DNA of 15,618 bases from Fibrobacteria bacterium. GTDB taxonomy: Bacteria > Fibrobacterota > Fibrobacteria > UBA11236. This document shows positions 3-15,555 of the stretch, in pieces. Location of the stretch: contig JAYTHY010000022.1 of the NCBI GenBank assembly GCA_043732185.1, forward strand, positions 1 to 15,618. Reading direction: 5' to 3'. Numbering within the stretch: the stretch's first letter is position 1; every line of letters starts with the position of its first letter. Both the position numbers and the translations under genes were made by a program. The notes beneath the pieces are model-generated. The model saw nothing but the letters and a program-made list of their open reading frames with translations, did not search any database and had not been told where the DNA came from.

Positions 3-944
3 ATGATGCGCCCAAACCACAAAGGAGAGCAATCCAGCCACCATAGTTGCATAGATGATGGCCCGATAGCCGAAAAGCGGCTTGCGTGAAAAGGTGGTGA
101 GAATTTCTGCGGCAAAACCCAATGCTGGCAAAAACAGCACATACACTTCCGGATGTCCGAAAAACCAAAACAGGTGTTGGAACAAAACGGGGTCGCCACC
201 CGCCGCCGGATTAAAAAAGCCAGTACCTGCGGTGCGATCCAGGAGCAGCATAATGGCTCCAGCTATCAACGGACCTACAGAGAACATGAATACCAAAGTG
301 GCGATGACAAACATCCAGACGGTTAGTGGCAAATCGAACCACCCAAGGCCTTTGACTCTAAGATGCGATGTCGTGACTAAGAAATTAATGCCACCCATGA
401 GAAAAGCCGCGAACTCCAACGCTACGGCCAGTATCCATAGGTTACCGCCAATCCCATCCCAGAATGTTAGTCCGCGATACGCGCCTGCGGATAGAGGTGG
501 GTATGCAGTCCAACCTCCGGCAAATGCGCCGCCAGGCACAAAGAAGGAAGAAATCAATACGCATGTGCTGAGGAAAAACACCCAGTAAGACATCATATTG
601 AGTGCGGGAAAAGCCATATCGTCCGCGCCGACCATGAGTGGAATCAGAAGGTTTCCAAAGGCCGCCAATAAAATAGGCATGGCCACCCAAAATACCATGA
701 TGGTTCCATGCATCGTGATGAATTCATTGTATCGAGCTGCGGCAAGTTTTCCGAACAACGGAATTTCCGATCCCGGATACGCCAATTGCATTCGAAAAAC
801 ATACGATAGGAACACGCCTAGCCCCAACATCAACAATCCAGTAACCAGGTATTGCAACCCAATGACTTTGTGGTCGACGGAAAATACATAACGGCGGAAG
901 AATCCTTGGGGGGAATGCTGTCCGTGTGACGAAGAATGACTCAT
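3..944 (-). CDS. ctaD: Cytochrome c oxidase subunit I, A1-type heme-copper oxidase (partial; continues past left edge)
   Basis: Missing from the ORF track because it is truncated. Manual translation from ATG at 944 (AAGGA RBS upstream): MSHSSSHGQHSPQGFFRRYVFSVDHKVIGLQY...ITMHGTIMVFW...VGADDMAFPALN...GWTAYPPLS...WFFGHPEVYVLFLP...VVWAHH. Heme a His, D-channel Asp/Asn, GHPEVY and the CuB HH pair are present. Confidence 0.98.
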   Translation of the reverse strand, partial: MSHSSSHGQHSPQGFFRRYVFSVDHKVIGLQYLVTGLLMLGLGVFLSYVFRMQLAYPGSEIPLFGKLAAARYNEFITMHGTIMVFWVAMPILLAAFGNLLIPLMVGADDMAFPALNMMSYWVFFLSTCVLISSFFVPGGAFAGGWTAYPPLSAGAYRGLTFWDGIGGNLWILAVALEFAAFLMGGINFLVTTSHLRVKGLGWFDLPLTVWMFVIATLVFMFSVGPLIAGAIMLLLDRTAGTGFFNPAAGGDPVLFQHLFWFFGHPEVYVLFLPALGFAAEILTTFSRKPLFGYRAIIYATMVAGLLSFVVWAHH

Positions 945-957
945 GCTTTCCTTTAAA

Positions 958-1914
958 TCAACGAAGGGTTTTGAGATAGTCCACCACAGCTTTTCTTTCC
1001 TCCGCGGTGAGCCCCAGCTTGGGCATTAATCCCTGCGGGAATCCTTCAACCACATCTGCGGAAGGATCTTCGATGGACCGATTGATGTACTCTTCATCCG
1101 CGATTATTTCACGCCCGTCAGCAAGCTTGGTTTTTCTGCCAAAGATACCGAGATAACTTGGGCCTACTAATTTTGTTCCGTTCAAGGTGTGGCAGGCCAC
1201 GCAGCCTTTGGATTTCAATAGCGCCAAACCGGGTCCACCATTCTCCGGGAGCACGGTCAAACCGGCCACCAATTCCTCTTGAAACTTTTCCGGGGGCACA
1301 ACATGCAAGGTCGCATGCATCAGCGAATGTCCGGTTCCGCACAATTCCGCACAGGCAATTGGATAAGACCCTTCCTTTATAGCACGGAACCAACGGGTAA
1401 TGATTCGCCCAGGTACTGCATCTTGCTTGAACCTTAATGATGGCACCCAAAAGCTGTGCAGCACATCAACGGCAGCCAATTCAAAAATCACATTGGTGTC
1501 CCTGGGGACCACAAAATCATTATTGCGCACAATATCATCCGCAGTGCCAAGAATCCCATCCGGACCCGGATATGAAAAGGACCATTGGTATTGGCGACCC
1601 GTAACCCGAACCTTGAGACCATCAGAGGGCAAGGACTGCATGACGGCTGACCAGGCTTCATGGTTCTTGATGTCGATTAAAAAGTCTAGCACAACTACTG
1701 CCACCACGGGAAGGAGAACCCATCGCAATTGGCGCCAACCTACTCCGCGGATATAGGGCACTTTCCCATTCTTCCGTTTTCGGAAGAACAGCAGCATTCC
1801 TATCAAGATGACTTCGGCCAAAATAAAGACCACAATCGCGATCACGGATATAAATCCAATCAACGAATCGATTTCCCCACCAAATGAGGAAATGTTTTCC
1901 GGCATCAATCCCAT
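958..1914 (-). CDS. ctaC: Cytochrome c oxidase subunit II with C-terminal cytochrome c domain (caa3-type)
   Basis: Two N-terminal TM helices, QYQWSFSY aromatic loop, CuA ligands DVLHSF and CAELCGTGHSLM, heme c motif CVACH and probable distal Met in LMPK. RBS AAGGGA upstream; directly precedes subunit I. Confidence 0.98.
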   Translation of the reverse strand: MGLMPENISSFGGEIDSLIGFISVIAIVVFILAEVILIGMLLFFRKRKNGKVPYIRGVGWRQLRWVLLPVVAVVVLDFLIDIKNHEAWSAVMQSLPSDGLKVRVTGRQYQWSFSYPGPDGILGTADDIVRNNDFVVPRDTNVIFELAAVDVLHSFWVPSLRFKQDAVPGRIITRWFRAIKEGSYPIACAELCGTGHSLMHATLHVVPPEKFQEELVAGLTVLPENGGPGLALLKSKGCVACHTLNGTKLVGPSYLGIFGRKTKLADGREIIADEEYINRSIEDPSADVVEGFPQGLMPKLGLTAEERKAVVDYLKTLR

Positions 1915-1982: not shown

Positions 1983-2160
1983 TGTGTTTTGTGGCTTAAT
2001 TCATTAAATTTCGCAGTTTTTTAACGAGGAAAGCCGGGCCTGCGGAAAGGTTTTGACTTTTTTGCAAAGAGTGACAAAGAGCTTCGCCAAAATGGCAAGC
2101 CTCTACCCGTCCGGTTTAAAAAGTCTGATTAGTAATGGCGCCAAACGCCCAATGCATCCG

Positions 2161-2394
2161 TTAAACGGAGCTTTCAAGTTGCTGGGCCTTGCGGACCAGT
2201 CGCGTTTCGCACAGTTTTACAAACTCCAATTGTGTCTGGCTGGAATTTGCATGCGCCCGATGGCGAAAATCTCGTGTTGCAATAATCACCTCTTCCTGAA
2301 TGGCATCCCGGTTGAGGACACGACCAAAGTACCGAGTCAGCCCATTCAGGTTTGAAAAAACAAAAACCGGTGTTCTACGATCTGATGCGTCCAT
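2161..2394 (-). CDS. Small hypothetical protein (77 aa), paralogue of 2632..2868
   Basis: GAGGGG RBS 8 nt before ATG; ungapped alignment to the divergent neighbour with 24/77 identities (hand count). Confidence 0.8.
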   Translation of the reverse strand: MDASDRRTPVFVFSNLNGLTRYFGRVLNRDAIQEEVIIATRDFRHRAHANSSQTQLEFVKLCETRLVRKAQQLESSV

Positions 2395-2631
2395 CGCTTA
2401 TACCCCTCATGCCGGGATTTCGTCCCTTGCGGTTATCATACCTTTTTGGGATTATCGGTAGCAAAGGACTATTTCCTGAGACATTTGAGGGTTATTCGCA
2501 AAAAACAATAAAACCGTCCCATTTTTGACCACGATTGCCACGTGACGGGAAGTTTTTGACACTACCCTATGGGTTCGGCCCAATTTCTAACCCAATCCAG
2601 GGAAATTCCGCCGCACATAGAAGGTAAGCCC

Positions 2632-2868
2632 ATGTCCCCGTCCGACCGCAGGAATAGCAAATATGGTTTTGAATCCCTGAATTCCATGACGGAATTCTTT
2701 TCTCGATGGATTTCGGATACGGAAATTCAAGACCTCATTCAGCAAGCTGAAACCGCTTTTCGTCCCCGACTGGAAACATCACCGGCAGAAAATCATTTAC
2801 AGAAAATCCAAAAGGCCGAGTTTGCCATCGTTCGCAAATTGGTACAACGCAATTCAACTATCCCCTGA
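2632..2868 (+). CDS. Small hypothetical protein (78 aa), paralogue of 2161..2394
   Basis: Start moved from 2569 to ATG 2632 because GAAGGT lies 6 nt upstream and MSPSDRR then aligns with MDASDRR of the neighbour. Confidence 0.8.
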   Translation: MSPSDRRNSKYGFESLNSMTEFFSRWISDTEIQDLIQQAETAFRPRLETSPAENHLQKIQKAEFAIVRKLVQRNSTIP

Positions 2869-2942
2869 GTATCTCTCCTAGCCGGATAATCCCATTGCCC
2901 CCGGATTCACAGCGTCTGGCTGATTTCCTACCTTTATTCAGC

Positions 2943-2957: not shown

Positions 2958-2991
2958 CACCTGGGCCTGCATGCCTGGATAAAGGATGACC

Positions 2992-3474
2992 ATGATACTC
3001 GAACAAATCAACGCCGACCTTATTTCCTTTATGAAGGATCGGGAACCGGCCCGCAAAGAAGAAAACCAGCTTAAAATCATGACACTCCGGACCTTGTTGG
3101 CTGAAGTGAAAAGTTTTCTGGTGAACAATCGCAAGGAGCCTACCGATCAAGAGGTCTCCATCATTTTGGCGAAAGCGATCAAGCAGTTCCGGGAAACTTT
3201 TGAAAATGCCGCTGGGAAAAATGCAGCTGGAGTGATTCGTGAAGATATCGCCGCTCAGGAGAAAGCAAAAATCGCAACTTTGGAAAAATACCTTCCCACC
3301 CAAATAGGCCATGCCGAAATTGAAGCGTTGGTGGTTTCCGCCATTGCACAAGCCGGTGCGACTACATCCAAGGATATGGGTGCGGTTATGGCAATCATCA
3401 GGCCATTGACACAGGGAAAGGCCGATGGCAAAGTAGTCAGCGAAGTCGTCAAGGCCAAATTGGCAGGCGGCTGA
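2992..3474 (+). CDS. GatB/YqeY domain-containing protein
   Basis: ILEQINADLISFMK...TLRTLLAEVK...LEKYLPTQ...KDMGAVM...GKADGKVVSEVVKAKL matches the YqeY pattern. ATG 2992 is better spaced from the AAGGA RBS than ATG 2986. Confidence 0.93.
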   Translation: MILEQINADLISFMKDREPARKEENQLKIMTLRTLLAEVKSFLVNNRKEPTDQEVSIILAKAIKQFRETFENAAGKNAAGVIREDIAAQEKAKIATLEKYLPTQIGHAEIEALVVSAIAQAGATTSKDMGAVMAIIRPLTQGKADGKVVSEVVKAKLAGG

Positions 3475-3669: not shown

Positions 3670-3822
3670 CGCCTTTCTGCCTAGAAAAGCCAAAGCCCCC
3701 CAGGCCCATCCAGGCGGACTTAGATCCCGAAATTTGTACATTATCCCAGTCCTACACTATTCCGATTTGAGGCCGATTCTGATGCCTCTCCGCATTTGCG
3801 GTCCAACCAAGGAGCGAATCCT

Positions 3823-4626
3823 TTGCTGAAAAATTCACTCTACTTTGTCATGCTATTGCTTGGCCTGTGCACAAATCCCCTCAAAGCCCAAGAAACGCTT
3901 TCCGCCGTTCAAAGGGATTTGGACCGCGTGGACAAGGAAATTGAACGCGAGAAGGATTTGCATAAAACCGAAAGGAAACGCGCGGCAGAGTATGAAACTG
4001 AAAAAGCCGCAAAACTAAAAGCATTGCAGGATCAACTGCGCTTGACGCAGCTCAAAATCGACAGTCTTAAACATCAGGTTGAACGCGCACGGCAGCAAAA
4101 AGTAGCATTCCGATCCCAAAGCGCCGCATTCCAGTCTAGAGCGCGGGAATTCGTCAAAGCGTTGTCCAAACAAGTTCGAGATCTCGCCACATCGCTTACC
4201 AAAGATTTTCCGTATGATAGGGAAAAACGAGTTTCCGATTTTACCGAACTCGCGGCCGCCATCGATAATGGTGTCGTAGGTGTAGAAGATGGGTTGAATC
4301 GCTTCTTTACCTTGATGCAAGGCTCCCTGGACTTCGCCTACGACACAGAAGTGTATCGTGGAAGTTACCAGGCTACGGATGGGTCCATGCATGAAGGCAG
4401 CTATGTGCGGCTAGGCGCTGCCTTGCTCGCCTTTGCGGACGAAGAAGCCAAGACGGCGGCGTTTTTATCCAAAGAGGACAGTGGGTATACGTGGAAGGAC
4501 AAAGATTTGTCACCGGAAACACGACAGGATATTTTCACCGCAGTGAAAGTGGCCCAAGGCAAAGTCGCCCCACAATTGGTAAACATCCCGTTCAAAGCAC
4601 CAAGACCCCTGGAGACCGGCAAGTGA
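3823..4626 (+). CDS. DUF3450-like periplasmic coiled-coil protein (TtpB-like component of TonB2-type operon)
   Basis: TTG start 8 nt after AAGGAG; signal peptide ending PLKA; long coiled coil, then FPYDREKRV and YVRLGAALLAF motifs typical of DUF3450; heads the ExbB/ExbD/TonB operon. Confidence 0.88.
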   Translation: MLKNSLYFVMLLLGLCTNPLKAQETLSAVQRDLDRVDKEIEREKDLHKTERKRAAEYETEKAAKLKALQDQLRLTQLKIDSLKHQVERARQQKVAFRSQSAAFQSRAREFVKALSKQVRDLATSLTKDFPYDREKRVSDFTELAAAIDNGVVGVEDGLNRFFTLMQGSLDFAYDTEVYRGSYQATDGSMHEGSYVRLGAALLAFADEEAKTAAFLSKEDSGYTWKDKDLSPETRQDIFTAVKVAQGKVAPQLVNIPFKAPRPLETGK

Positions 4627-6110
4627 ATCGCAATCTGGTTTTATCCGCCACGCTCTTGGCACTTCTGTTCACGGGCCTAAGCCGTGCGCCTAGGGCACAG
4701 GTTTCCGTCAATGAAAACGCCGATAAACTAGAAGCCTTGAAAGAAGAATTGGAAAAAGCCCGGCAACTGCGCGATAAGGTTATTGCCAAACGCTGGGAAG
4801 ACAAGCGTACCGACATGGAAGGGCGCGAAAAATTCAATCAAGCTTATGACGACCTCAAAAACCAGCTCGAGGCCAGGAACTTGGAGGCCGATCGCCAACA
4901 CGAAGAAATCCAATCCCTGGCCAAAGATGCGGAAGAGGCCGAAGCCCAGGCGGAAATCGCTAAGGTGCAATTCTTGTCATTGGCTCCCTTGCTGCGCGAC
5001 CGTATCACGGAAATGTCCGCCCAGATAGAAAAAGGCTTTCCTGCCAAAGTGCCGGAACGCATGCAGCGCTACAATTCGATCTTGAAAGGTGCGGATACCA
5101 AGCGCGACGCACCCGCAGACATTCTCGCCGACCTCATGGGCTTTTATCATTCCGAACTGGATTTAACTCGGGAAATTACCCTAGAGAAACGCGGCTTTGT
5201 ACGCGCGGACAAATCACCGGGGGAAGGCGCGCTCCTACGCATTGGCATGGCGGCCTCCGCCTATCGCGATGATAAAACCGGAGCTGTAGGCCTGCTCATC
5301 AAGGATGCCGGAAACGGCGCCGTAAATCCGTACGACTGGCGCGAAAACCTGCCTGCGGACGTCAGCGCCAACCTTGGTCGCAATTTGGAAAAAATGGAGA
5401 AAGGCGAAACTGGATCCGTATCGGTACCGCTGGACATACTGCCCAATCAAACGCAGGGCAAAGCCTATATCCAAAAAGAAGAAAAAAGCTTTTGGAAATC
5501 CTTGATGCATACGGTCAAGACGGGCGGAATTTTCATGTGGCCGCTGCTCATTATTCCCGTGATTGCCATTGCTCTCTTCCTGCAAAAACTATTGTCCGTA
5601 TTCGTCAGCCGCGCTGGAGGCACAGGCCTTTACACGCAGGCCGTCGAGAAATTGGCTTCACCCAATCCCGAGGACGCCCTTAAGATTTGCAAACAAAGAC
5701 CCAAGAGTCCGGTCCTGCAAATTATTGGAGCAGTGGCAGCCAATCGTAACACAGATCGGGAAATGGCTGAAAAGGATGTTAAGGAAGTTATCCTTCGCTT
5801 GGTGCCGCGTTTGGAAAGGCATCTCACCACATTGTCTGTGCTGGCCGCAGCGGCGCCTCTCCTGGGCTTGCTCGGAACGGTTTCCGGCCTTATCGCCATG
5901 TTTCAAGTCATCACCCAGCATGGCGTCAACGATCCCAAACTACTGGCGGGCGGCATCGGCGAAGCGCTTATCGCCACGGAAACCGGACTGCTCATTGCCA
6001 TCCCTACCTTGCTCGGGCACAACTGGCTGGCCAACCGCGTGGATCATTTAGTGTCCGATATGGAATTTTACGCCCTCAAAGCGCTGAACACAGTTTGGCC
6101 CAAGGGATAA
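4623..6110 (+). CDS. Large MotA/TolQ/ExbB family protein with periplasmic DUF3450-like N-terminus (TtpC-like)
   Basis: GTG start overlapping the previous stop (GTGA) with GGAG upstream; signal peptide, coiled coil, FPAKVPER, LLRIG, then GGIFMWPL, APLLGLLGTVSGLI and AGGIGEALIATETGL. Confidence 0.93.
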   Translation: MNRNLVLSATLLALLFTGLSRAPRAQVSVNENADKLEALKEELEKARQLRDKVIAKRWEDKRTDMEGREKFNQAYDDLKNQLEARNLEADRQHEEIQSLAKDAEEAEAQAEIAKVQFLSLAPLLRDRITEMSAQIEKGFPAKVPERMQRYNSILKGADTKRDAPADILADLMGFYHSELDLTREITLEKRGFVRADKSPGEGALLRIGMAASAYRDDKTGAVGLLIKDAGNGAVNPYDWRENLPADVSANLGRNLEKMEKGETGSVSVPLDILPNQTQGKAYIQKEEKSFWKSLMHTVKTGGIFMWPLLIIPVIAIALFLQKLLSVFVSRAGGTGLYTQAVEKLASPNPEDALKICKQRPKSPVLQIIGAVAANRNTDREMAEKDVKEVILRLVPRLERHLTTLSVLAAAAPLLGLLGTVSGLIAMFQVITQHGVNDPKLLAGGIGEALIATETGLLIAIPTLLGHNWLANRVDHLVSDMEFYALKALNTVWPKG

Positions 6111-6117
6111 TGGGAAG

Positions 6118-6690
6118 ATGCCCACTTTGTTTTCCCAAACACTTTTCGATCTCTGGCGTATCATTTCGCAAGGCGGCTGGGTGATGGGCGCCATTTTCAT
6201 CGCGGGTCAAGTGGGTTGGTTTTTCATTTTAGAGCGCTGGTGGCACTTTCGAAAAATGGATCACAAACAGACCAATGGTCTATACGGCACATTGAATCAA
6301 ACGCTCACTGCAGCCCGCGACCAGGGCCAGGAAGTCCTGATATCCCTGGCCCGCGAATCCTTGCATCGAGACATCCCTGCCCTGTCCCGGCACTTAGGTA
6401 CATTAGCAGTTCTGGCAGGAGTGGCACCGCTGCTTGGCCTAACGGGGACGGTACTTGGAATCATGCAAACATTTCAGGTTATCACCTTGTATGGCGCTGG
6501 AAATCCTTCTATGATGGCGGGTGGAATCGCTCAGGCCTTGATGGTTACGGAAGCAGGATTGGTAGTGGCCTTCCCTCTGCTTATCTGTCACGATCATTTG
6601 CAAAAGCGGGCGGACAAAATCGAAGATGAATGCATCGAGAGTGCGACCAGCCTCATCCGTAAATTCGCTGGAAAAGGAGCGGCAGTATGA
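6118..6690 (+). CDS. exbB: MotA/TolQ/ExbB proton channel protein (short ExbB2 type)
   Basis: GGWVM TM1, APLLGLTGTVLGIMQTF, MAGGIAQALMVTEAGL. Confidence 0.95.
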   Translation: MPTLFSQTLFDLWRIISQGGWVMGAIFIAGQVGWFFILERWWHFRKMDHKQTNGLYGTLNQTLTAARDQGQEVLISLARESLHRDIPALSRHLGTLAVLAGVAPLLGLTGTVLGIMQTFQVITLYGAGNPSMMAGGIAQALMVTEAGLVVAFPLLICHDHLQKRADKIEDECIESATSLIRKFAGKGAAV

Positions 6691-7109
6691 GCTCCCTCGG
6701 TGGCGATGATTTTGGATTGCGCAAGCGGCCGCGTCGCGTAGCCGAAATCAATCTGATCAACATGATCGACATGCTTTTCTTTCTGCTCGTCTTTTTTGTC
6801 TTGACTAGCAGCTTCACCCGCGAAACCGGCATCGACATCAACAAACCCAAAGCCAGCAGCTCCAAATCACTGCCGCGCCAGCCTCTGCTAATCGGTGTGA
6901 CCAAAGACGGCAGTATCCATGTGAACGAAAGTCCGGTAAGTCTTAAGGCGCTGGGAACCGTGCTCAAATCCTATATGAGCCAGGATCCGGATAGGGCTGT
7001 GGTCATTGTCGCCGACCGTGATGCCGCTATCGCCAAGGCAGTGGATGTACTGGATGAATGCAATCTGGCCAATGTGAAAAAGGTTTCCATCTCTTCCCTT
7101 AAAGAATAA
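6687..7109 (+). CDS. exbD: Biopolymer transporter ExbD
   Basis: NMIDMLFFLLVFFVLTSSF TM with the conserved Asp, VVIVADR periplasmic motif; ATGA overlap with exbB and AAGGAG RBS. Confidence 0.96.
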   Translation: MSSLGGDDFGLRKRPRRVAEINLINMIDMLFFLLVFFVLTSSFTRETGIDINKPKASSSKSLPRQPLLIGVTKDGSIHVNESPVSLKALGTVLKSYMSQDPDRAVVIVADRDAAIAKAVDVLDECNLANVKKVSISSLKE

Positions 7110-7801
7110 TGCGTGCATCTTCGGTACTGGAAAAATCCGTACTTTTTTTAGCCGCCTTGGCTGTGAATCTAGGTCTCTATCTTTTAGTTCCTTATATTCA
7201 AGTGTTGATATTGAAACATTCCGGCGCGGGTCCCAAGCCACCGAAGCAAGTTACGACGGTGCTCGCCATGGCGCCCCCGCAAACTGAAAAAATCATCAAG
7301 CGCGAAATCAAAGAAATCAAAACGCAATCATTTACTCCGCCCCAACCCAATCCCTCCAGGCCTTCCACTCCGGGCGGCGGACTTAAAATTGATCTCAGTC
7401 CGGCTGGTGGTGATGGGCTGTCACTGGTTTCCGGCGGGGATCGCACGGGGCAAATTGGATCCGGCACGGGTGGTGGCGTAGGTGCAGGAATGGCGGCCAT
7501 GACCTATGAACAAGGCCAAACGGATTTTGATGCAAAACCCCTGAACAGCCCTCCACTCAAATTTCCGCCCCGGGCAAAACGGGAAGAAATTTCCGGACAG
7601 GTCGAACTTACTTTTGTGGTCAACGAATCCGGAAATGTGGAACAGGTGTCCGTACTGAAGGAGGAACCGGTAGGTTACGGGTTTGCATCATCGGCTATTC
7701 AATCCGCGGGGCAATTGCGATTTAAACCGGCAACTTTGCAGAAGATGGCGGTGCGGCAACGCTTTAAACAAACGTTTCGGTTTTCGGTCGAGGGGAAGTA
7801 G
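7109..7801 (+). CDS. tonB: Energy transducer TonB
   Basis: N-terminal anchor, Pro/Gly-rich linker, C-terminal domain FPPRAKREEISGQVELTFVVNESGNV...RFKPA; TAATG coupling to exbD. Confidence 0.95.
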   Translation: MRASSVLEKSVLFLAALAVNLGLYLLVPYIQVLILKHSGAGPKPPKQVTTVLAMAPPQTEKIIKREIKEIKTQSFTPPQPNPSRPSTPGGGLKIDLSPAGGDGLSLVSGGDRTGQIGSGTGGGVGAGMAAMTYEQGQTDFDAKPLNSPPLKFPPRAKREEISGQVELTFVVNESGNVEQVSVLKEEPVGYGFASSAIQSAGQLRFKPATLQKMAVRQRFKQTFRFSVEGK

Positions 7802-7804
7802 GCT

Positions 7805-9124
7805 GTGAGCGTGGGGCTAAACATGGGGTTTGTGAGCCGGGTGGGCAAGCCTCCGGAACTCGCGCTTAGAATATCCCCGGCGGACGTCCCTGCGAACGCG
7901 CTCAGACAAGCCTGCGGCTTGCCCACCCGGCTCCCAAAGCCCCTCTCTCGTGCCCACGAACACGTCGGTACTACGGTAGCGGGGCGGAGTGGTCTCGGGG
8001 AGGGGAGGGGAAGCAGCGGGCTGCTGGTGGGGTTGCGGTTGTGGGTTGTGATGATGGTGTTGGTTGGGGTGGCTGGATGGACGCTGGGATTAGCGGAAGA
8101 GGGCGCCGCGGGGAAGGCGCCGGAAATTGAGCAGGAGAAGAGTGAAGGGAAGAGTGAGGGGGCGGTTGCTGGTGGAAAGCCGGCGGATGGGAAGTTGCAA
8201 GATCCGCTTGCTAGTGGAAATCGGCTTTATGAGAAGGGGGATTTTGTTGGGGCGGCGGAGCAGTATAGGGTAGCGGCGCAGAAGTCGAAGATTTTGGTGA
8301 ATCGGGCTTTTGCTTGGTTCAATTTGGGGAATTGTCATGTGCAGACCAAAAGTTATAACAAAGCGGTGGTTGCGTATCGGCGGAGCTTGGAGGAATCGCC
8401 TTTGTTTACGCGGGCTTGGATGGTTTTGGGCGAGGTCTATTATACTATGGGCGCGGTGGGAGATGCGTTTCCTTGCTTTAGGCGTGTGATTGAAATCGAT
8501 GGGCCGAATCTTAGGGCATATCAAATGCTTGGGGAGTTGGCTTTGCAGGGGGGTGATATTCCAGAGGCGCTGCAGAATTTTGAGGCAGCGCTGAAGCTCG
8601 ATCCGGATCAGGCGGACATCCACCTGGCTATGGCGGAGGCGTATACTCGGATTCGCGATTATGCGAGTGCGCAAAAGGTGATGGAGGAAGCACTGCTCAT
8701 TCTTCCCAATCCACCTGCGGAGGCCTACTTTTATTTGGGTCAATTGCATGAGCTGGGCGGGAATGATAGGAAGGCTGTGCGGGCCTATGAGGAGGGCTTG
8801 CTGATTGATCCCAAGCGGACGGAGTATTTTATGCGAATAGCCGGAATCCATGAGAAAAATGGGGATGATTTTTTGGCATTATTGACTTTGGAGCAGGCGA
8901 TTCGGTTGGGGATTAAGAAGCCGGAGATCAGGGTGAAGCGGGGGATGATATTTTTTGGGCAGGGGCGGTACGATAGGGCGTTGGAGGAGTATTCGGCTGC
9001 GTATGCGCTGGGGAGTCAGCAGGGGCGGAGGGGGATTGAGAATGTGGCTGCGGTGTATTTTAATGGTGGGGATAGGAAGCGGGCCCAAAAAGTCAATTCC
9101 ATATTGAATCTCGTCACTAAATGA
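7805..9124 (+). CDS. Tetratricopeptide repeat protein with signal peptide/TM segment (TtpD-like); start codon uncertain
   Basis: Many TPR repeats (AWFNLGNCH, AWMVLGEVY, AYQMLGELA, AYFYLGQLH). Hydrophobic segment at about residues 73-97. GTG 7805 has a GAGGGG RBS; alternative starts near 8027-8054 lack a well-spaced RBS. Confidence 0.9.
   Translation: MSVGLNMGFVSRVGKPPELALRISPADVPANALRQACGLPTRLPKPLSRAHEHVGTTVAGRSGLGEGRGSSGLLVGLRLWVVMMVLVGVAGWTLGLAEEGAAGKAPEIEQEKSEGKSEGAVAGGKPADGKLQDPLASGNRLYEKGDFVGAAEQYRVAAQKSKILVNRAFAWFNLGNCHVQTKSYNKAVVAYRRSLEESPLFTRAWMVLGEVYYTMGAVGDAFPCFRRVIEIDGPNLRAYQMLGELALQGGDIPEALQNFEAALKLDPDQADIHLAMAEAYTRIRDYASAQKVMEEALLILPNPPAEAYFYLGQLHELGGNDRKAVRAYEEGLLIDPKRTEYFMRIAGIHEKNGDDFLALLTLEQAIRLGIKKPEIRVKRGMIFFGQGRYDRALEEYSAAYALGSQQGRRGIENVAAVYFNGGDRKRAQKVNSILNLVTK
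7810..7958. repeat. Palindromic (REP/MITE-like) element with 18 bp perfect arms
   Basis: GAGCCGGGTGGGCAAGCC (7834-7851) is the exact reverse complement of GGCTTGCCCACCCGGCTC (7916-7933). Pairing extends imperfectly to 7825/7943, with outer CGTGGG (7810-7815) and CCCACG (7953-7958). Confidence 0.85.
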
Positions 9125-9236
9125 ATGTTGGTTTTGCAGGACAATTCGGAATTCACTAACATTACTAAGGCCTTTAAAAGGTTTGTACTTTCTTTCCACC
9201 TTCTTAACTTCCCAATCGGAAAAGGATTCTGAACGA

Positions 9237-10862
9237 ATGCGAAACGGAATTTTCATTACTCATACATTAATTTTTTGCCTCAGCACATGCTTTTTCGCCT
9301 CAGGTATGGCGATGGAATTTCCACAAGATTTAAAAAGAAAAATCCTTGGTAATACTGAAGAATTGCAAAATAGCCCAACTGATCTAAACAGAGATTCGCC
9401 GGATAACTCAATTGATTCCATTCGCTACCTTGTTGGAGGGGGAGATGGATTTAGGATTTCTATAGTTGGACTACCAAGCCAGGAGTACTTTCCGATAATT
9501 GATCAGAAGGGAAATATATTCGATGGCGATATTGGAATTATTCCGTTGGGGAAAGTCCCACTTTGCGTAGCGGAATCTATCATAGCAGAAAAGGTGAAAA
9601 AAAAGTTACGAAAAAACAATGAAATCTATATTTCACTTCGAAAAATTAAAAAGGCGAATGTTACTGTAACGGGTCTAATTGCAAATCCAGGAACCTATAC
9701 AATATCTGGAAGTATGCATGTTTTTGATGCGGTTAAAATCGCTAATGGCGGAACTATTCCGTCTCAAGCACTAGTAAACTTCCGATCCATAGAAGTAAGA
9801 AATGGTGACTCGGTTAAAAGCCTTGACTTACTTAGGTTTTTGATTAAACAAGATGTTTCTCAAAATCCATACGTCTATCCGGGCGATCATATCCATCTCC
9901 GATCACTGGATACTCGAATTTACTTGACGGGTGAGTTTATGGAACCAAGCGGCGGAGAAATTCCATTGTTGCCAGGTGAGACTGTTGCTGACATTCTCAA
10001 AATTATCCGTTTGCGGAAAAATGCCGATACTACTGTAATTACCGTGCACATTGCCGAAACTAATGGTGCTCAACCAAATAGCCAAAGAACCCTAAAAGAA
10101 ACCATGGACTGCGTACTTGGAAATAATGACGTAGTATCTATTGGATCTCAAATGATGAGTCGGAGAGCCGACACCATTACCGTTACTGGAGAAGTCAATA
10201 GGCCGGGAACCTACTTTATCAATTTCCACGAAACCACGTTAAACTCGGTTCTAGAATTAGCCGGAGGGCCAACTGAACAAGGGGATGTCAATCGAGCCTT
10301 TATAATTCATAAACGCAAAATGAACGAAATAATAAATGAAGGGGTTCACCCTGGGCTTATTGGCCAAGCAGGACTTTCGCAGCCCTTCCCTACCCCGGTT
10401 TCCATACGAACCGTTCGTCCAGAAATTTCTTCTTCCATTTCAGACTTGCTGCAAACGGGAGATTTCAGCGTGATTGAAGAACATGAACTATCTCAAAAAG
10501 GCCTCCTAGTGGATGGTGATGAGGTAAACATCCCACATAGAGAAACTTTCGTCTATGTAAGCGGAAATGTCCGGAAGCCCGGAGCCTTTCCATATAAAGC
10601 TGGAGCTACCTACGCAGAGTATATAAAGGAAGCTCATGGCTATACAAGAAAAGCAGACAGCCGAAACAGCTTCATCCTTACCAAATACAAAGGCGTAACA
10701 CAAATACGATCTGATACTGAACCAAAACCTGGGGACATCCTAGTAGTTCCATCCAGCATGGAATATAAAAGATTTAATGGGCTTTATGTTCCCTTGTTTC
10801 AAATCGTTCCCGCAATTGTAAGCCTGGTCCTTACATTCGTAATAGTGTTAAAAACGAAATAA
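9237..10862 (+). CDS. SLBB-domain polysaccharide export protein (Wza/KpsD/OtnA-like)
   Basis: Signal peptide; Poly_export-like YLVGGGDGFRI...IDQKGNI; repeated SLBB units VTVTGLIANPGTY, ITVTGEVNRPGTY, VYVSGNVRKPGAF; PGDILVVP and a C-terminal hydrophobic helix. ATG 9237 follows AAGGA. Confidence 0.9.
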   Translation: MRNGIFITHTLIFCLSTCFFASGMAMEFPQDLKRKILGNTEELQNSPTDLNRDSPDNSIDSIRYLVGGGDGFRISIVGLPSQEYFPIIDQKGNIFDGDIGIIPLGKVPLCVAESIIAEKVKKKLRKNNEIYISLRKIKKANVTVTGLIANPGTYTISGSMHVFDAVKIANGGTIPSQALVNFRSIEVRNGDSVKSLDLLRFLIKQDVSQNPYVYPGDHIHLRSLDTRIYLTGEFMEPSGGEIPLLPGETVADILKIIRLRKNADTTVITVHIAETNGAQPNSQRTLKETMDCVLGNNDVVSIGSQMMSRRADTITVTGEVNRPGTYFINFHETTLNSVLELAGGPTEQGDVNRAFIIHKRKMNEIINEGVHPGLIGQAGLSQPFPTPVSIRTVRPEISSSISDLLQTGDFSVIEEHELSQKGLLVDGDEVNIPHRETFVYVSGNVRKPGAFPYKAGATYAEYIKEAHGYTRKADSRNSFILTKYKGVTQIRSDTEPKPGDILVVPSSMEYKRFNGLYVPLFQIVPAIVSLVLTFVIVLKTK

Positions 10863-11726
10863 CTACCTAACTCCAAGCTTTCCCATTAAGGCATCCCTAA
10901 TTCCCAACAAATATTGAGAAAGTATACGGGGATTTCGAATTTTATAACCTAGCAGCAAAATAATAAAAGGCCAGTAAATACATTTCTGCAGCAAGGTTGC
11001 TCTATGCATGATAATATGTGTTTGGTTACGCATTCGGTAATATTCTTTTGGCGTTCCCATACGATCTGTTGACGAACTAACTTTATGGCGAATCACTATT
11101 TTTGGGTTGTGTATGATACTTACCCTATTTTTTTTTAACCGGATACAGAAATCAAAATCTTCTTGATACATAAAATAACGATCGTCAAATTTGCCATGCC
11201 TCTGGAATACCTCAGAAGGCACAAACATCATACATCCCGAAAGAAAATCAATGTTTGCTTGAAAGCCAGGTGCAAAAATAGGCTTAACTAGTCCAGTCCA
11301 CTTTGATAATCTACCGATATTATGCGAAATCTGACCTGTTTCAGAGTCCAACACAGTTCCAGCGATTACAGCGCCAGGATTGGCGTTTATTGTGGCTAAG
11401 CATTCTGGCGCAAACATTAAATCCACTACAGTGTCGTTATTCAAAATTAAGATCGATTTAAATCCTTCGGCTAATGCAGCTGCAATTCCCAGATTCATTC
11501 CACCGGTGTAGCCTAGGTTCTTGCCTGGTGCGAAATAGGCGTAATTAGATCCAGAGCTTTCCAGGAATTCGAGAAGTACCTTTTCAGACCCATCGTCCGT
11601 ATCATTGTTAATTAGGAAAAACTTAAAAGCATCCTTATCCGACGCGATTATAGAAGAGATACAAGCAATAGTATCCTCAGGAAACCGATAATTGATAAGT
11701 AGACAAGCAATGGAAGCCAAACTCAT
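10863..11726 (-). CDS. Glycosyltransferase family 2 (WbbL/rhamnosyltransferase-like)
   Basis: NLGYTGGMNLG, LILNNDT, SGCMM, FDDRYFMYQEDFDFCIR; ATGA overlap with the upstream GT4. Confidence 0.95.
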   Translation of the reverse strand: MSLASIACLLINYRFPEDTIACISSIIASDKDAFKFFLINNDTDDGSEKVLLEFLESSGSNYAYFAPGKNLGYTGGMNLGIAAALAEGFKSILILNNDTVVDLMFAPECLATINANPGAVIAGTVLDSETGQISHNIGRLSKWTGLVKPIFAPGFQANIDFLSGCMMFVPSEVFQRHGKFDDRYFMYQEDFDFCIRLKKNRVSIIHNPKIVIRHKVSSSTDRMGTPKEYYRMRNQTHIIMHRATLLQKCIYWPFIILLLGYKIRNPRILSQYLLGIRDALMGKLGVR

Positions 11727-12916
11727 TGGACTCCCTCAGGAATTGAAATCCCAGAGGATTGAAAAATGCTTTCAAACCAATCAGTCAAACGCTTTTTAGC
11801 AGATTCTGGAGAAAAGTATTGTGCTCGTTCACGAGCTCGATTCGAATATTTAGTATAAGATTCTGGCTCTTGGATCAGATCATCAAGCGCCCTACCCCAT
11901 GCTGCAAAATCGTTATTCGCCTCTAGTATTCCTGCATCTCCAACAATTTCTGGTATGGCCGAATTTCTAAATCCGAAGACTACTAAGCCATTGCCCATAG
12001 CTTCCACCAAGGGAAGACCGAAACCTTCCTTCAGGCTGGGGAAAAGTAGAATGTGGCAAGCCGCATATAGCTGACTCAGTTCTGCATCCGTTACTAGCCC
12101 ATGCCAACGGATCTTGGACCGGACACCCGCAGACTGGGCGATGGAATCGAGTTCTTTCCGAATATCTGGAGCGATTCTTCCGGCCAGATGCAATACGACA
12201 TCGTGGCTACCTACCACTTCCTGGAGATGTGAAAGTAGCGCTGCAATATTCTTTCTGGGCTGATAGGAACCGACATAGAGGAAATTGATGGGGGAAAAGT
12301 TAGCGGTCTTTTCAATACTCGCAATTGTAAGAGCCTCGCGAACACCCAAATGCACCACCTTTAGTTTGGCAGTATCCATGGAAGGGAAGAAAGCCAATGC
12401 TTTCTCGCGGGTATGGTCACTATTTGTCATCTTATATTCCACTCGAGAAGCAATTTTAGCCTTATACCTATAGTACAACCTTCGACTCCATTTTCGACTC
12501 TCGGTAGAATCCGGTTCTAATTCAATGAAGTCATGGTAACACAGTGCTTGTGGGACAGAACACCTAACAACCGTGCGAAGCTCAGGGTGTATAATTAATT
12601 TTGGGTTGCGTTTAAGCAATTTTCGATATCGAATGGTACTAAAGAGGCCATGAAACCGTTCATACCTACCAATACCTGGCACTGGCGACATTTCCACAAC
12701 TTGATCCCGACTGACACCTATTGGCTCAAGATATTTTTTAAATGTTCCAGGTGCAGCAACGAAGCTCGTACCCTTAAACCGGGGGGTCTTCGCCAGAATT
12801 TCAACCATGCGAAAAATAACCTGGTGAATACCTCTTAGATCGCCAGCAAAACCAAGAATAGTTACATCAAGAAAGACTCCATTTCCAGTATTCTTTTGCT
12901 TCAATTTAACCCTCAC
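11723..12916 (-). CDS. Glycosyltransferase family 4 (MtfB/WbpY-like GT-B)
   Basis: GIH near N-terminus, HD motif, VGSYQPRKN, FPSLKEGFGLPLVEAM (EX7E); GTGA overlap with the upstream GT4. Confidence 0.95.
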   Translation of the reverse strand: MRVKLKQKNTGNGVFLDVTILGFAGDLRGIHQVIFRMVEILAKTPRFKGTSFVAAPGTFKKYLEPIGVSRDQVVEMSPVPGIGRYERFHGLFSTIRYRKLLKRNPKLIIHPELRTVVRCSVPQALCYHDFIELEPDSTESRKWSRRLYYRYKAKIASRVEYKMTNSDHTREKALAFFPSMDTAKLKVVHLGVREALTIASIEKTANFSPINFLYVGSYQPRKNIAALLSHLQEVVGSHDVVLHLAGRIAPDIRKELDSIAQSAGVRSKIRWHGLVTDAELSQLYAACHILLFPSLKEGFGLPLVEAMGNGLVVFGFRNSAIPEIVGDAGILEANNDFAAWGRALDDLIQEPESYTKYSNRARERAQYFSPESAKKRLTDWFESIFQSSGISIPEGVQ

Positions 12917-14082
12917 GACTTCAAATGACCTAACAGTTCGTTACCTATCTTTTCCATGGAAAAATTTTCTTCCACCGCCTTTCGGTTGATTTCGGCCATA
13001 ACTCGATATTTTTCAGAATCCAAAAGATCCTCAATGGTGCGCATTAACTCGTTAGCGTCATTCCATATCGGGATGGTTAATTCCTCTAGCCCCTCAGCTC
13101 CGAGTGGAGTAGAGACAATGGGCCTTCCAAACGCTGCCGCCTCCACCAACTTAGTCCGCAGTCCACGACCTTCGCGAACGGAGTTCACGAATATTCCGAT
13201 TGACATGTAAAAATCTACCAAGTTTGGAACATCATCCCAAATCGCTATAGTTGGGTTTCCTTCACAGGCTACCTTGAGAGAATTTGGAATTCCTCGGCCA
13301 GCAATCAAAAGTTTAAGCGTGGGGATTTTTACAAGTAGCGTAGGATAAAGCTTGGTGGCCAACCAATGAGCAGCATCGATATTGGGTAAATGCTTGAAGT
13401 TTCCAATAAATCCAAGCGTGCGTGGACTCGTAGGCACGGGGAGCTGAGGATATTCCTCCAGAGGAATTCCATATTTTAAAATTGCAGTCGGCAAATCCGA
13501 AAACTGGCGGCGAATAACGGTCCGCTCTTCTGGAGAAATAGTGATAAATAAATTTATTGCCTTCATTCTTCTTTTGTAGTACGCCAGTGTCTGCTTATGC
13601 CGCAATTTATTCTTCAGCGATAGAACCCAACGGAAAAAGCCATCTTGACCAATCGGCGGCTTTCGAAAAGATTCGATAAGTAAATCGTCTTCTAAGTAGA
13701 CTGCTTTCCCAAACCTTAGCCCCCAATCTTTTCCAAGAAACGAGAGAGATAAAGGGTAAGCCATTAAGGTTGCATCAAATTGCAATCCGTTCAAAAATGG
13801 CCCTACGGTTGACCTATGCCATATGATTTCCTCATTAATATCTACGGGCGTTGAACTAGCCTTACGCCACCAAGATTTTGGATTTCCCAGCGATAAATAC
13901 AATGCCTTAGGAAACTCTGCAGGCTGTTCATCCCCTTCGCGCCATTCTCGACATCCGTCTAGGCAAATGAGGTATAAATCACAGTTTTTGGCGAGCTCGG
14001 AAGCAAAATAATATAAGCGCTTAACCCCACCAAAACGCGACTCTCGAAAGAGCGCAAAAGAAGAGATGAAAAGAACCTTCAT
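12913..14082 (-). CDS. Glycosyltransferase family 4 (GT-B)
   Basis: MKVLFIS...FGGVKR, FIGNFKHLPNIDA, GRGLRTKLVEAAAFGRPIVSTPLGAEGL. Confidence 0.93.
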   Translation of the reverse strand: MKVLFISSFALFRESRFGGVKRLYYFASELAKNCDLYLICLDGCREWREGDEQPAEFPKALYLSLGNPKSWWRKASSTPVDINEEIIWHRSTVGPFLNGLQFDATLMAYPLSLSFLGKDWGLRFGKAVYLEDDLLIESFRKPPIGQDGFFRWVLSLKNKLRHKQTLAYYKRRMKAINLFITISPEERTVIRRQFSDLPTAILKYGIPLEEYPQLPVPTSPRTLGFIGNFKHLPNIDAAHWLATKLYPTLLVKIPTLKLLIAGRGIPNSLKVACEGNPTIAIWDDVPNLVDFYMSIGIFVNSVREGRGLRTKLVEAAAFGRPIVSTPLGAEGLEELTIPIWNDANELMRTIEDLLDSEKYRVMAEINRKAVEENFSMEKIGNELLGHLKS

Positions 14083-14365
14083 TTGGGTCCGAAAATTGGT
14101 TTAGCAAGGCTAATCACATGGGTAAAATAGCTAATTCTAGACTACGACGCCTTGACAAGGTAGAGCCATAAGTCGACGAATCATTGATATTGGAGGATAG
14201 GTCCAATTACTCAGTGTCAAACAGATCCCTGTTCCAACCGTTCAGTTACCACAGGAAACTGTTAAGGGGTAGATTCCATCATTTCAACTCTTGACCAGTC
14301 CCCTTGGGCCGAAGTACTTTTATTAAATGTAACCGCCCTATTTATTCTAAAACTAAAGGCTTTTG

Positions 14366-14382
14366 TTGGCACGCAAATTGCA
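14366..14382 (+). promoter_or_regulatory. Sigma-54 (-24/-12) promoter of the lipoprotein genes
   Basis: TTGGCACGCAAATTGCA is a perfect match to YTGGCACGNNNNTTGCW, 50 bp before ATG 14433. Confidence 0.88.
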
Positions 14383-14432
14383 ATTACCTCATCAAGTACA
14401 AAAGTTACGCCAATATTAAGGGACATAATCAG

Positions 14433-15185
14433 ATGCTATTAAAACCCCGCATTTTCTTACTCCTGATGACCATGGCGATAATCGGGTGCCAGCCCACCAC
14501 CACTGCACCAGTCGAAACCAACCAGAAACCTTTGCCCGAATTTTTCAATTTGGAAATCGGAAGCTCATGGGAGTACCTTCTCTCCTACTCAAAAACTGAA
14601 CCCCTTTGGCCTGTAGTCCATGCCATAGGCGCCAAGAAGACAATTAAGCTGAAGGGCGTAGCAAAGAATTTTGATACCACTATATTTGCATTCTCCATAA
14701 GTGACACTGTGCTAAATGATTACTCCACCACTCCAGCTGATACAATTAACCAATTAAGCGATTCGAGCGGTCAACAACTAGAACGCTTATCCGGTTTCGG
14801 CTGCAAACCGGGCCACTATTCGGTTTCCTTTTTCGTCACACCAAAATCACCTTATCCTCAGGCCATCATGGGTTGGGTTGGATTCGATCTTTTTCTTAAA
14901 GGCCCTGTGAAGTTGGATAGCATGAACTATACCTATGACATGACTCAAACCAAGGTGTCATCCAAAGTTATGAACATAATGCAATGGCATGGCAATCCTC
15001 ATTACATCGCAAACTTTCCGAATCCCGAAAGTCACCCTCCCATCTTTGTAGACGGTTACAGCTATTTTGAAAAAATAGGCTTACTTGGTTCTCGTTATTA
15101 TTCAGGGAGTCACGGCTGGGGCCTTCGTAAGTCGTTAGAGCTTTTAAAATTTAATGGCCAAGATGTGGTTTTTTCTGCCCAATGA
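14433..15185 (+). CDS. Hypothetical lipoprotein (250 aa)
   Basis: Start moved from 14304 to ATG 14433 (AAGGGA upstream, and downstream of the sigma-54 site). MLLKPRIFLLLMTMAIIGC has a lipobox, followed by a Pro/Thr linker and FFNLEIGSSWEY. Confidence 0.85.
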   Translation: MLLKPRIFLLLMTMAIIGCQPTTTAPVETNQKPLPEFFNLEIGSSWEYLLSYSKTEPLWPVVHAIGAKKTIKLKGVAKNFDTTIFAFSISDTVLNDYSTTPADTINQLSDSSGQQLERLSGFGCKPGHYSVSFFVTPKSPYPQAIMGWVGFDLFLKGPVKLDSMNYTYDMTQTKVSSKVMNIMQWHGNPHYIANFPNPESHPPIFVDGYSYFEKIGLLGSRYYSGSHGWGLRKSLELLKFNGQDVVFSAQ

Positions 15186-15231
15186 AAATTATTTTGGTCG
15201 TCGCTTCAGGCCTCTCAGGGAAGGAAATTTT

Positions 15232-15555
15232 GTGAGGAAAATCTTATGGTTTTGTTTTTCCCTTACCTTACTTTGTTGCACGGAAGATGAAGTTTCGAAC
15301 CCTGTAATAGCAAAACCTCCGGCAATAACGGATTCAAAACAGCCCGTGGATAAAATTGACTCTGCCTACTTCCCGATAGAGCCATTCCTGACTTGGAAAT
15401 ATCGCAAAGCAATTACTGGTGATTTTGCTGGCATTCGTATGGAACCAAAAAATTTTGGTTTTACAATTCGATCTCCCCAAATACTGGACTCACTCACCTT
15501 GGTCAGGGTAGTGAATATTAATTCGGCTCTTCGGGCGATCGAGTGGGTGAAATAG
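15232..15555 (+). CDS. Hypothetical lipoprotein (107 aa), possibly truncated
   Basis: GTG 15232 after AAGGA RBS; MRKILWFCFSLTLLCC lipobox-like signal, Pro-rich linker, YFPIEPFLTWKY similar to the motif in the upstream gene. Confidence 0.7.
   Translation: MRKILWFCFSLTLLCCTEDEVSNPVIAKPPAITDSKQPVDKIDSAYFPIEPFLTWKYRKAITGDFAGIRMEPKNFGFTIRSPQILDSLTLVRVVNINSALRAIEWVK

Follow-up and report, generated by a model that had tools for sequence, protein, structure and literature searches.

Two small genes lying head to head in the genome of a Fibrobacteria bacterium, here called A and B, are judged, with somewhat more confidence than doubt, to be paralogues of ancient origin in an undescribed family of small soluble proteins (about 80 residues each), kept as a divergent pair beside yqeY and a TonB2-type operon, and a binding or regulatory role is proposed for them. 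They were studied within a stretch of 15,618 nucleotides of contig JAYTHY010000022.1, referred to below as the window, in which the following features form the core of the locus.

2161-2394, minus strand: gene A, 77 aa, a predicted soluble three-helix protein of the A subfamily (Cys62, His45, Val26)
2395-2631: divergent control region of 237 bp with back-to-back promoter-like elements
2632-2868, plus strand: gene B, 78 aa, the paralogue of A, of the B subfamily (Trp26, Pro45, Ala62)
2986-3474, plus strand: yqeY, a GatB/YqeY-domain gene downstream of B (Pfam YqeY, E 1.4e-31)

A stop codon stands immediately before the ATG of A (stop-to-stop frame 2164-2397), which is preceded at 8 nt by the Shine-Dalgarno-like sequence GAGGGG, and GAAGG, likewise Shine-Dalgarno-like, is located 7 nt before the ATG of B at 2632, in agreement with the good ribosome-binding sites claimed for both genes in the original prediction. 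The head-to-head spacing of 237 bp (2395-2631) is also as described there. The start of B at ATG 2632 is favoured by the lengths of its orthologues, mostly 78-80 aa (n=53), which do not support the alternative start at ATG 2569 with its ORF of 99 aa.

The gap-free alignment of the two proteins from Met1, on which the prediction of a paralogous pair had been built, was reproduced by BLASTP with 24 identities and 41 positives over 77 positions, 0 gaps and an E value of 6e-13. The shuffle check suggested for this alignment was significant, as the Smith-Waterman score of 107 compared with 23.5 +/- 4.3 for shuffles of B (z 19), a score of 107 being reached by 0 of 5000 shuffles, and the 24 identities observed in register compared with a maximum of 15 among 5000 shuffles. 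Profile-profile comparison of A and B, each represented by 30 orthologues, gave a probability of 96.6% and an E value of 6.9e-10 over 73 columns. Judged by these comparisons, A and B are true paralogues. At the DNA level 99 of 231 bases are identical, and the match at just 25 of the 77 third codon positions suggests that the duplication is old and that the similarity has been held at the protein level.

For A, 69 other matches were retrieved with 59-85% identity, and for B 53 matches with 53-96% identity, while a search with a joint A+B profile collected 157 proteins at E <= 1e-3 and listed the 120 best of them. Coding sequences of the two genes, drawn from the window and from 13 genome loci, among which 46 of 91 pairs for A and 39 of 66 pairs for B had a usable dS, gave a mean pN of 0.126, a pS of 0.690 and a median dN/dS of 0.10 for A, with the corresponding values of 0.182, 0.639 and 0.17 for B. 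The selection claimed for the pair is thus purifying, and A and B are real protein-coding genes. It is scarcely credible that the two ORFs represent fortuitous frames or decaying remnants whose similarity reflects a non-coding inverted repeat, a reading that can appeal to their small size and to the want of any annotation beyond "hypothetical protein", but which is contradicted by the chance-level identity at third positions alongside strong protein similarity, by the low dN/dS of both genes, by dozens of related sequences of conserved length for each of A and B, by the confident fold predictions described below and by the lack of a match in Rfam. The third-codon-position statistics together with dN/dS refute it. 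Scans of the region with Rfam and for tRNA genes found nothing.

The family was searched for in libraries of known sequences and folds. In Pfam the best E values for A and B were 0.17 and 0.053, corresponding to 11-13 bits against cut-offs of 25-27, and NCBIfam held nothing below E 0.04 for either protein. With 31 diverse members as queries, Pfam families attracted 2 members at most and no gathering cut-off was attained, and no family of PHROGs or NCBIfam was matched by more than 1 member; a PADLOC match to REase_II in 4 of the 31 members (E >= 1.3e-3, 44 residues) was judged to be noise. A profile search of PDB sequences returned a best E value of 1.1, and Foldseek comparison of the A and B models with the PDB, and of the A model with BFVD, yielded 0 matches at E <= 1e-3. 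The DNA-binding domain of Sap1 recurred as a weak Foldseek match, at E 0.8-4.9 and with an rmsd of 9-12 a lead at most. The ESM Atlas offered no usable match for A, and for the distant member P0131 it gave weak leads (recognition 1757 against a mark of 2300) to clusters without names, with Nterm_IS4 at rank 9, a lead that was rejected on finding no Nterm_IS4 match in the family with Pfam. By tblastn, B was unmatched in plasmids and phages, and A and P0131 were unmatched in plasmids. Readings as ACP-like or WXG100-like proteins, considered by eye, were dropped for want of a recurrent Pfam match and of a W-x-G motif.

Source names are all "hypothetical protein" save for two JGI labels in the B family, P0078 being called "FixJ family response regulator" and P0151 "adenosine deaminase"; both lack HMM support and are likely annotation noise. 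A text search of the literature on Fibrobacterota found nothing on the A/B family, and absence from print is not claimed. The designation of the family as undescribed stands, as no curated library searched holds it, and the earlier statement that the family could not be recognised is borne out in that Pfam, NCBIfam, PHROGs, PADLOC, PDB and BFVD contained no significant or recurrent match at the thresholds used.

A wider scan of B against 1.84 billion representative proteins, performed with no length limit, returned 22 matches at E <= 1e-3, all of 59-107 aa, which indicates that the family consists of stand-alone small proteins; no fused form was found among the 22. They include 18 distant members with 28-40% identity to B. 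Residues were counted over 171 aligned members, made up of 69 A, 84 B and 18 distant sequences after two short fragments had been dropped. The family shares an N-terminal conserved segment, (D/E)-R-R-x3-(Y/F)-x-F, followed by three helices, and four positions are nearly invariant, namely R6 (168/171), R7 (170/171), R46 (171/171) and E63 (170/171), with F13, F23 and F43 near-universal. Cys62 is present in 66 of the 69 A sequences and in 16 of the 18 distant members and in none of the 84 B sequences, all of which have Ala at this position; the other three A members carry Val. His45 is specific to A, and Trp26, Tyr11 and Gln57 are common to B and the distant members.

A maximum-likelihood tree was built from 10 A, 10 B and all 18 distant members on an alignment of 84 columns with long branches present. 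A and B each formed one clade (support 100/99 and 100/97), A joining P0135 (92/88) and B joining P0133/P0134 (95/93), so that the two are not sisters. Constraining A and B to group together cost 12.2 log-likelihood units and was weakly rejected (AU p 0.029), the group having been named after the tree was seen. Since the distant members joined by A are not those joined by B, the duplication appears to be ancient, and there is moderate evidence from the tree that it predates this lineage of Fibrobacterota. The inverted duplication originally proposed for this locus therefore keeps its age, for which the third positions (25/77) also speak, and loses its character as a local event of this lineage.

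AlphaFold2 monomer models predict that A and B share one three-helix architecture, in keeping with the small helical proteins that had been expected. The helices span residues 16-23, 29-42 and 51-76 in A (mean pLDDT 84.1) and residues 16-23, 29-42 and 51-74 in B (mean pLDDT 78.7), and residues 1-15 are without regular structure in both; the monomer modelling with Foldseek called for at the outset thus returned the same architecture for both proteins and no match at E <= 1e-3. Several conserved residues may have a purely structural role: the S-x-x-E boxes that precede helices 2 and 3, at 28-31 and 50-53, have the look of helix caps, and a place in the protein core would suit the invariant Phe, Ile and Leu. 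Both proteins are mildly basic, with a median pI of 9.6 for A and 8.2 for B, and helix 2 of A is acidic (IQEEV). No transmembrane segment is apparent in either family, the median of the maximum 19-residue hydropathy being 0.77 for A and 0.29 for B. A Tat signal peptide was considered on account of the RR pair and rejected, as Arg and Glu occur within the next 20 residues and no hydrophobic stretch is present. A prediction of the A+B complex, run without controls, scored 0.02 against a mark of 0.32, a value that speaks neither for binding nor against it.

The genomic surroundings of the pair were compared across loci after annotation of the genes on its two sides, which in the window are as follows.

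3-944, minus strand: oxidase subunit I, running off the window end (Pfam)
958-1914, minus strand: cytochrome oxidase subunit II with a fused C-terminal cytochrome c domain (Pfam COX2 and Cytochrom_C)
3796-4626, plus strand: DUF3450 protein (Pfam)
4491-6110, plus strand: long DUF3450 and MotA/ExbB protein, overlapping the preceding gene by 136 nt from its GTG start, which is probably placed too far upstream
6118-6690, plus strand: ExbB (Pfam)
6687-7109, plus strand: ExbD (Pfam)
7109-7801, plus strand: TonB (Pfam)
7805-9124, plus strand: TPR protein (Pfam)

The last gene of the TonB2-type operon here encodes a TPR protein, and TtpD is a TPR protein too. By their Pfam domains, the six genes at 3796-9124 follow the same order as the TonB2 operon of Vibrio vulnificus, given in PMC6957404 as ttpB-ttpC-exbB-exbD-tonB-ttpD. 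On the other side of the pair, the caa3-type oxidase (3-1914) implies aerobic respiration in this lineage of Fibrobacterota known from a metagenome-assembled genome (MAG).

A pattern scan with the A alignment, taking one genome per species, recovered 13 loci, all titled as MAGs of Fibrobacteria, Fibrobacterota or Fibrobacteres, in a search whose patterns would miss divergent members; their content was scored by tblastn with the window proteins and by the family HMM over six-frame ORFs. A is present in 13 of 13 loci by construction, B is divergent from A in 11 of 13, which confirms the recurrence as divergent pairs asked about at the outset, and yqeY adjoins B, or A where B is missing, in all 13. 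The DUF3450, long ExbB, ExbB, ExbD and TonB genes follow beyond yqeY in 10 of the 10 loci that reach that far. A search for a third paralogue with the family HMM, over six-frame ORFs from all 13 loci and from the window, gave 14 A and 12 B only. Consecutive locus tags for A and B occur in four MAGs, and for 21 of the 69 A matches the source and the longest-contig size are the same as for a B match by hand count. Two loci, L008 and L013, contain A and yqeY with B and its promoter block cleanly absent at the locus; the gap between A and yqeY there measures 253 nt (L008, 5748-6000) and 215 nt (L013, 5783-5997), and no remnant of B was found in either gap by HMM at E <= 1.

The conserved neighbours of the pair are accordingly those on the B side, yqeY and the TonB2-type operon. 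The compared genomes are fairly close, the 11 loci other than the two that nearly match the window having 71-81% identity to it in A and 73-85% in YqeY, so this synteny is weak evidence of a functional link. Beyond A the gene order is different from locus to locus: sulphur-transport genes lie downstream of A in L005 and L011, a response regulator or hybrid kinase in L007, L012 and L013, and YchJ in L008, and a GH5 cellulase in L006 and a TonB-dependent receptor in L010 are each the second gene after an unassigned ORF. Five loci have less than 1.5 kb beyond A; L003, L006 and L008 still show a non-oxidase gene directly downstream, and L004 and L009, which extend only some 0.3 kb past A, contain no ORF of at least 90 aa wholly downstream. 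Oxidase genes occur downstream of A in L001 and L002 only, with proteins 96-100% identical to those of the window. The link to the oxidase operon drawn in the original prediction is not conserved, and the position of that operon beside A is a lineage-specific accident of gene order.

The remainder of the window, beyond the TonB2-type operon, contains the following genes.

9183-10862, plus strand: SLBB-domain protein (Pfam), which we take to be polysaccharide-export-like
10863-11726, minus strand: GT2 glycosyltransferase (Pfam)
11723-12916 and 12913-14082, minus strand: GT4/GT1 glycosyltransferases (Pfam)
14304-15185 and 15154-15555, plus strand: ORFs of 293 aa and 133 aa without a Pfam match at E <= 1e-3

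The SLBB gene and the three glycosyltransferase genes (9183-14082) look like an exopolysaccharide cluster.

Promoter-like elements were located around all three genes of the conserved core, together with one hairpin on the oxidase side.

2084-2098, minus strand: weak terminator-like hairpin of 6 pairs between A and the oxidase operon
2435-2464, minus strand: putative promoter of A, TTGCTA, 18 nt, TATGAT, found by sequence scan
2500-2515, plus strand: candidate promoter block of B, inferred from the alignment, with a TACAAT-type -10 box in other loci
2923-2938, plus strand: promoter-like box of yqeY, TTTCCTA..TTTA, in the gap between B and yqeY

The -10 box of A and the A-rich run preceding it, AAAGGGTAT with 1 mismatch allowed, occur ahead of A at a distance of 37-93 nt in each of the 10 distinct loci; this is the only motif present in all 10, and it is found in L008 and L013 as well. 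The TACAAT-type box of B was recovered as a k-mer in 8 of the 10 distinct loci, the window having the variant AACAAT at 2504-2509. Transcription is predicted to start near 2428 for A and near 2520 for B. The TTTCCTA(G/C)(A/C)TTTA box was recognised by eye in each of the 10 distinct loci, where the gap between B and yqeY ranges over 85-302 nt, and in the window and L011 some 50-60 nt separate it from yqeY downstream. Its sequence is similar to a -10 hexamer and also to the Bacteroidetes-type promoter element, the consensus of which is TAnnTTTG, and the box is probably the promoter of yqeY itself. In L008 and L013, which lack B, the boxes of A and of yqeY persist. With separate conserved boxes for each, A, B and yqeY look like three separate transcription units.

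The number of terminator-like hairpins in the region does not exceed the shuffle expectation, and the window showed no conserved palindrome of the kind expected of an operator. A 10-nt inverted repeat, GATAATCCCA (2447-2456 / 2885-2894), was discarded as a candidate, being not conserved elsewhere and expected by chance about 0.6 times per 1.1 kb by estimate. Between the divergent promoters of the L004-L013 group, a block of about 30 nt, CCACAA..CGCAAA..TGCTGCAA, was noticed by eye; it is conserved within that group but not in the window, L003, L007 or L008. Where it occurs, this block is a possible operator.

As to function, A and B are proposed to be small cytoplasmic binding or regulatory proteins that would contact a partner, either protein or nucleic acid, via Arg6, Arg7, Arg46 and Glu63 and the third helix, which hardly varies. 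Strong selection acts on almost all positions of helices 2 and 3, and near-invariance on all helix faces suggests a conserved partner over a free-standing enzyme. A would have kept the ancestral Cys62, which B would have replaced by Ala, and the two may do related, non-identical jobs on the same target; that 2 of the 13 loci have A and lack B speaks against a heterodimer of the obligate kind. With no significant fold analogue available, the mechanism is drawn from conservation patterns, and the assignment of a cytoplasmic binding or regulatory role to this set of four residues is put forward tentatively, as a possibility that is rather to be doubted than relied upon. The invariant Arg and Glu residues could alternatively form internal salt bridges.

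The divergent arrangement in 11 of 13 loci, with conserved back-to-back promoter-like boxes, invites the reading that A and B form a heterodimer, or act as antagonists, and bind DNA in their shared bidirectional promoter region and possibly at neighbouring operons, and the basic character of both proteins and the block of about 30 nt between the promoters of the L004-L013-type loci would fit it. This is nevertheless unlikely, since L008 and L013 carry A with an intact promoter box and lack B, helix 2 is acidic in A, no conserved palindrome is present, the sole 10-nt inverted repeat is not conserved, and no HTH, RHH or other DNA-binding family was recognised by sequence or by fold. Conserved divergently transcribed gene pairs were reportedly described by Korbel et al. 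in 2004 as regulator-target pairs, and A and B are like them in staying head to head while the flank beyond A has been reshuffled, but unlike them in being paralogues of one family of which neither member is a recognisable regulator. The RHH regulators (Arc/MetJ/CopG) offer another comparison: A and B are also small, with a basic N-terminus and an extended N-terminal segment with alternating hydrophobics followed by helices, and are also located at a divergent promoter; they differ in their long third helix and in an N-terminal segment that is coil in the monomer models. A reading as RHH regulators gained no support, as Pfam gave no RHH, Arc, MetJ or CopG match and no RHH chain was present among the Foldseek PDB matches at E <= 10. 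Region 2 of sigma-70 and the N-terminal domain of ECF sigma factors (SigE) recurred as weak Foldseek matches of both the A and B models with TMq 0.38-0.49, among them 8b3z_E (TMq 0.46, rmsd 3.3, 65 columns), 2map and 4lup, but with E values of 2.1-6.6, a probability of at most 0.38 and no Pfam Sigma70_r2 match these are a lead and not a relationship.

The place of B just ahead of yqeY in 11 of the 13 loci raises another reading, in which A and B are accessory subunits of a core cellular machine, perhaps linked to translation, with B in the slot that rpsU takes in other bacteria. According to PMC13374519, yqeY of F. tularensis lies directly downstream of rpsU2, and the two reportedly act as a transcription unit of their own. 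B resembles the rpsU (bS21) gene of such a unit in being a gene for a small basic protein that immediately precedes yqeY on the same strand, a likeness of position only; unlike the rpsU-yqeY unit, the family has a second, divergent paralogue. The high conservation of all helix faces, and an identity of A (71-81%) comparable to that of YqeY (73-85%), would also suit a machine subunit. The reading is held to be quite unlikely all the same, given that yqeY has a conserved promoter-like box of its own, which is kept where B is absent, and that the family shows no similarity to bS21 by sequence or profile; a divergent bS21 was rejected on an hhalign probability of 0.4% over 9 columns for the family profile against bS21 of E. 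coli K-12 and on the lack of a Pfam Ribosomal_S21 match, and no Foldseek match at E <= 1e-3 was obtained to any chain of a ribosome structure. A last reading takes A for a redox or metal sensor acting through the thiol of Cys62, with B as its cysteine-free paralogue and the link to respiration as meaningful. The distribution of Cys62 (66/69 A, 16/18 distant members, with Ala in 84/84 B) and the position of A upstream of the caa3-type oxidase operon on the same strand in the window speak in its favour, yet the conserved Cys is single and without a conserved second ligand, His45 being specific to A, three A members carry Val62, and the oxidase linkage holds in 2 of 13 loci only, which leaves this reading highly improbable.

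Small cytoplasmic binding or regulatory proteins are the leading guess, a doubtful one, for A and B, which constitute a well-supported conserved hypothetical family and are not surprising biology in themselves. A bolder version, given very little credence here, would have a new family and fold in which the thiol-bearing A and the cysteine-free B act as a two-protein switch on one target, tied to the yqeY/TonB2 region and occupying the slot of bS21; if it were true, the wider family, with about 28-40% identity to B, would represent an unrecognised class of bacterial small regulators. As two strongly selected paralogues with confident models that match no known fold, the pair is a clean candidate for structural and pull-down work. 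The product of yqeY is called not well characterised in PMC13374519. Should a defined partner exist, A and B would provide a handle on this widespread gene and would form a conserved small-protein module for a phylum known mostly from MAGs.
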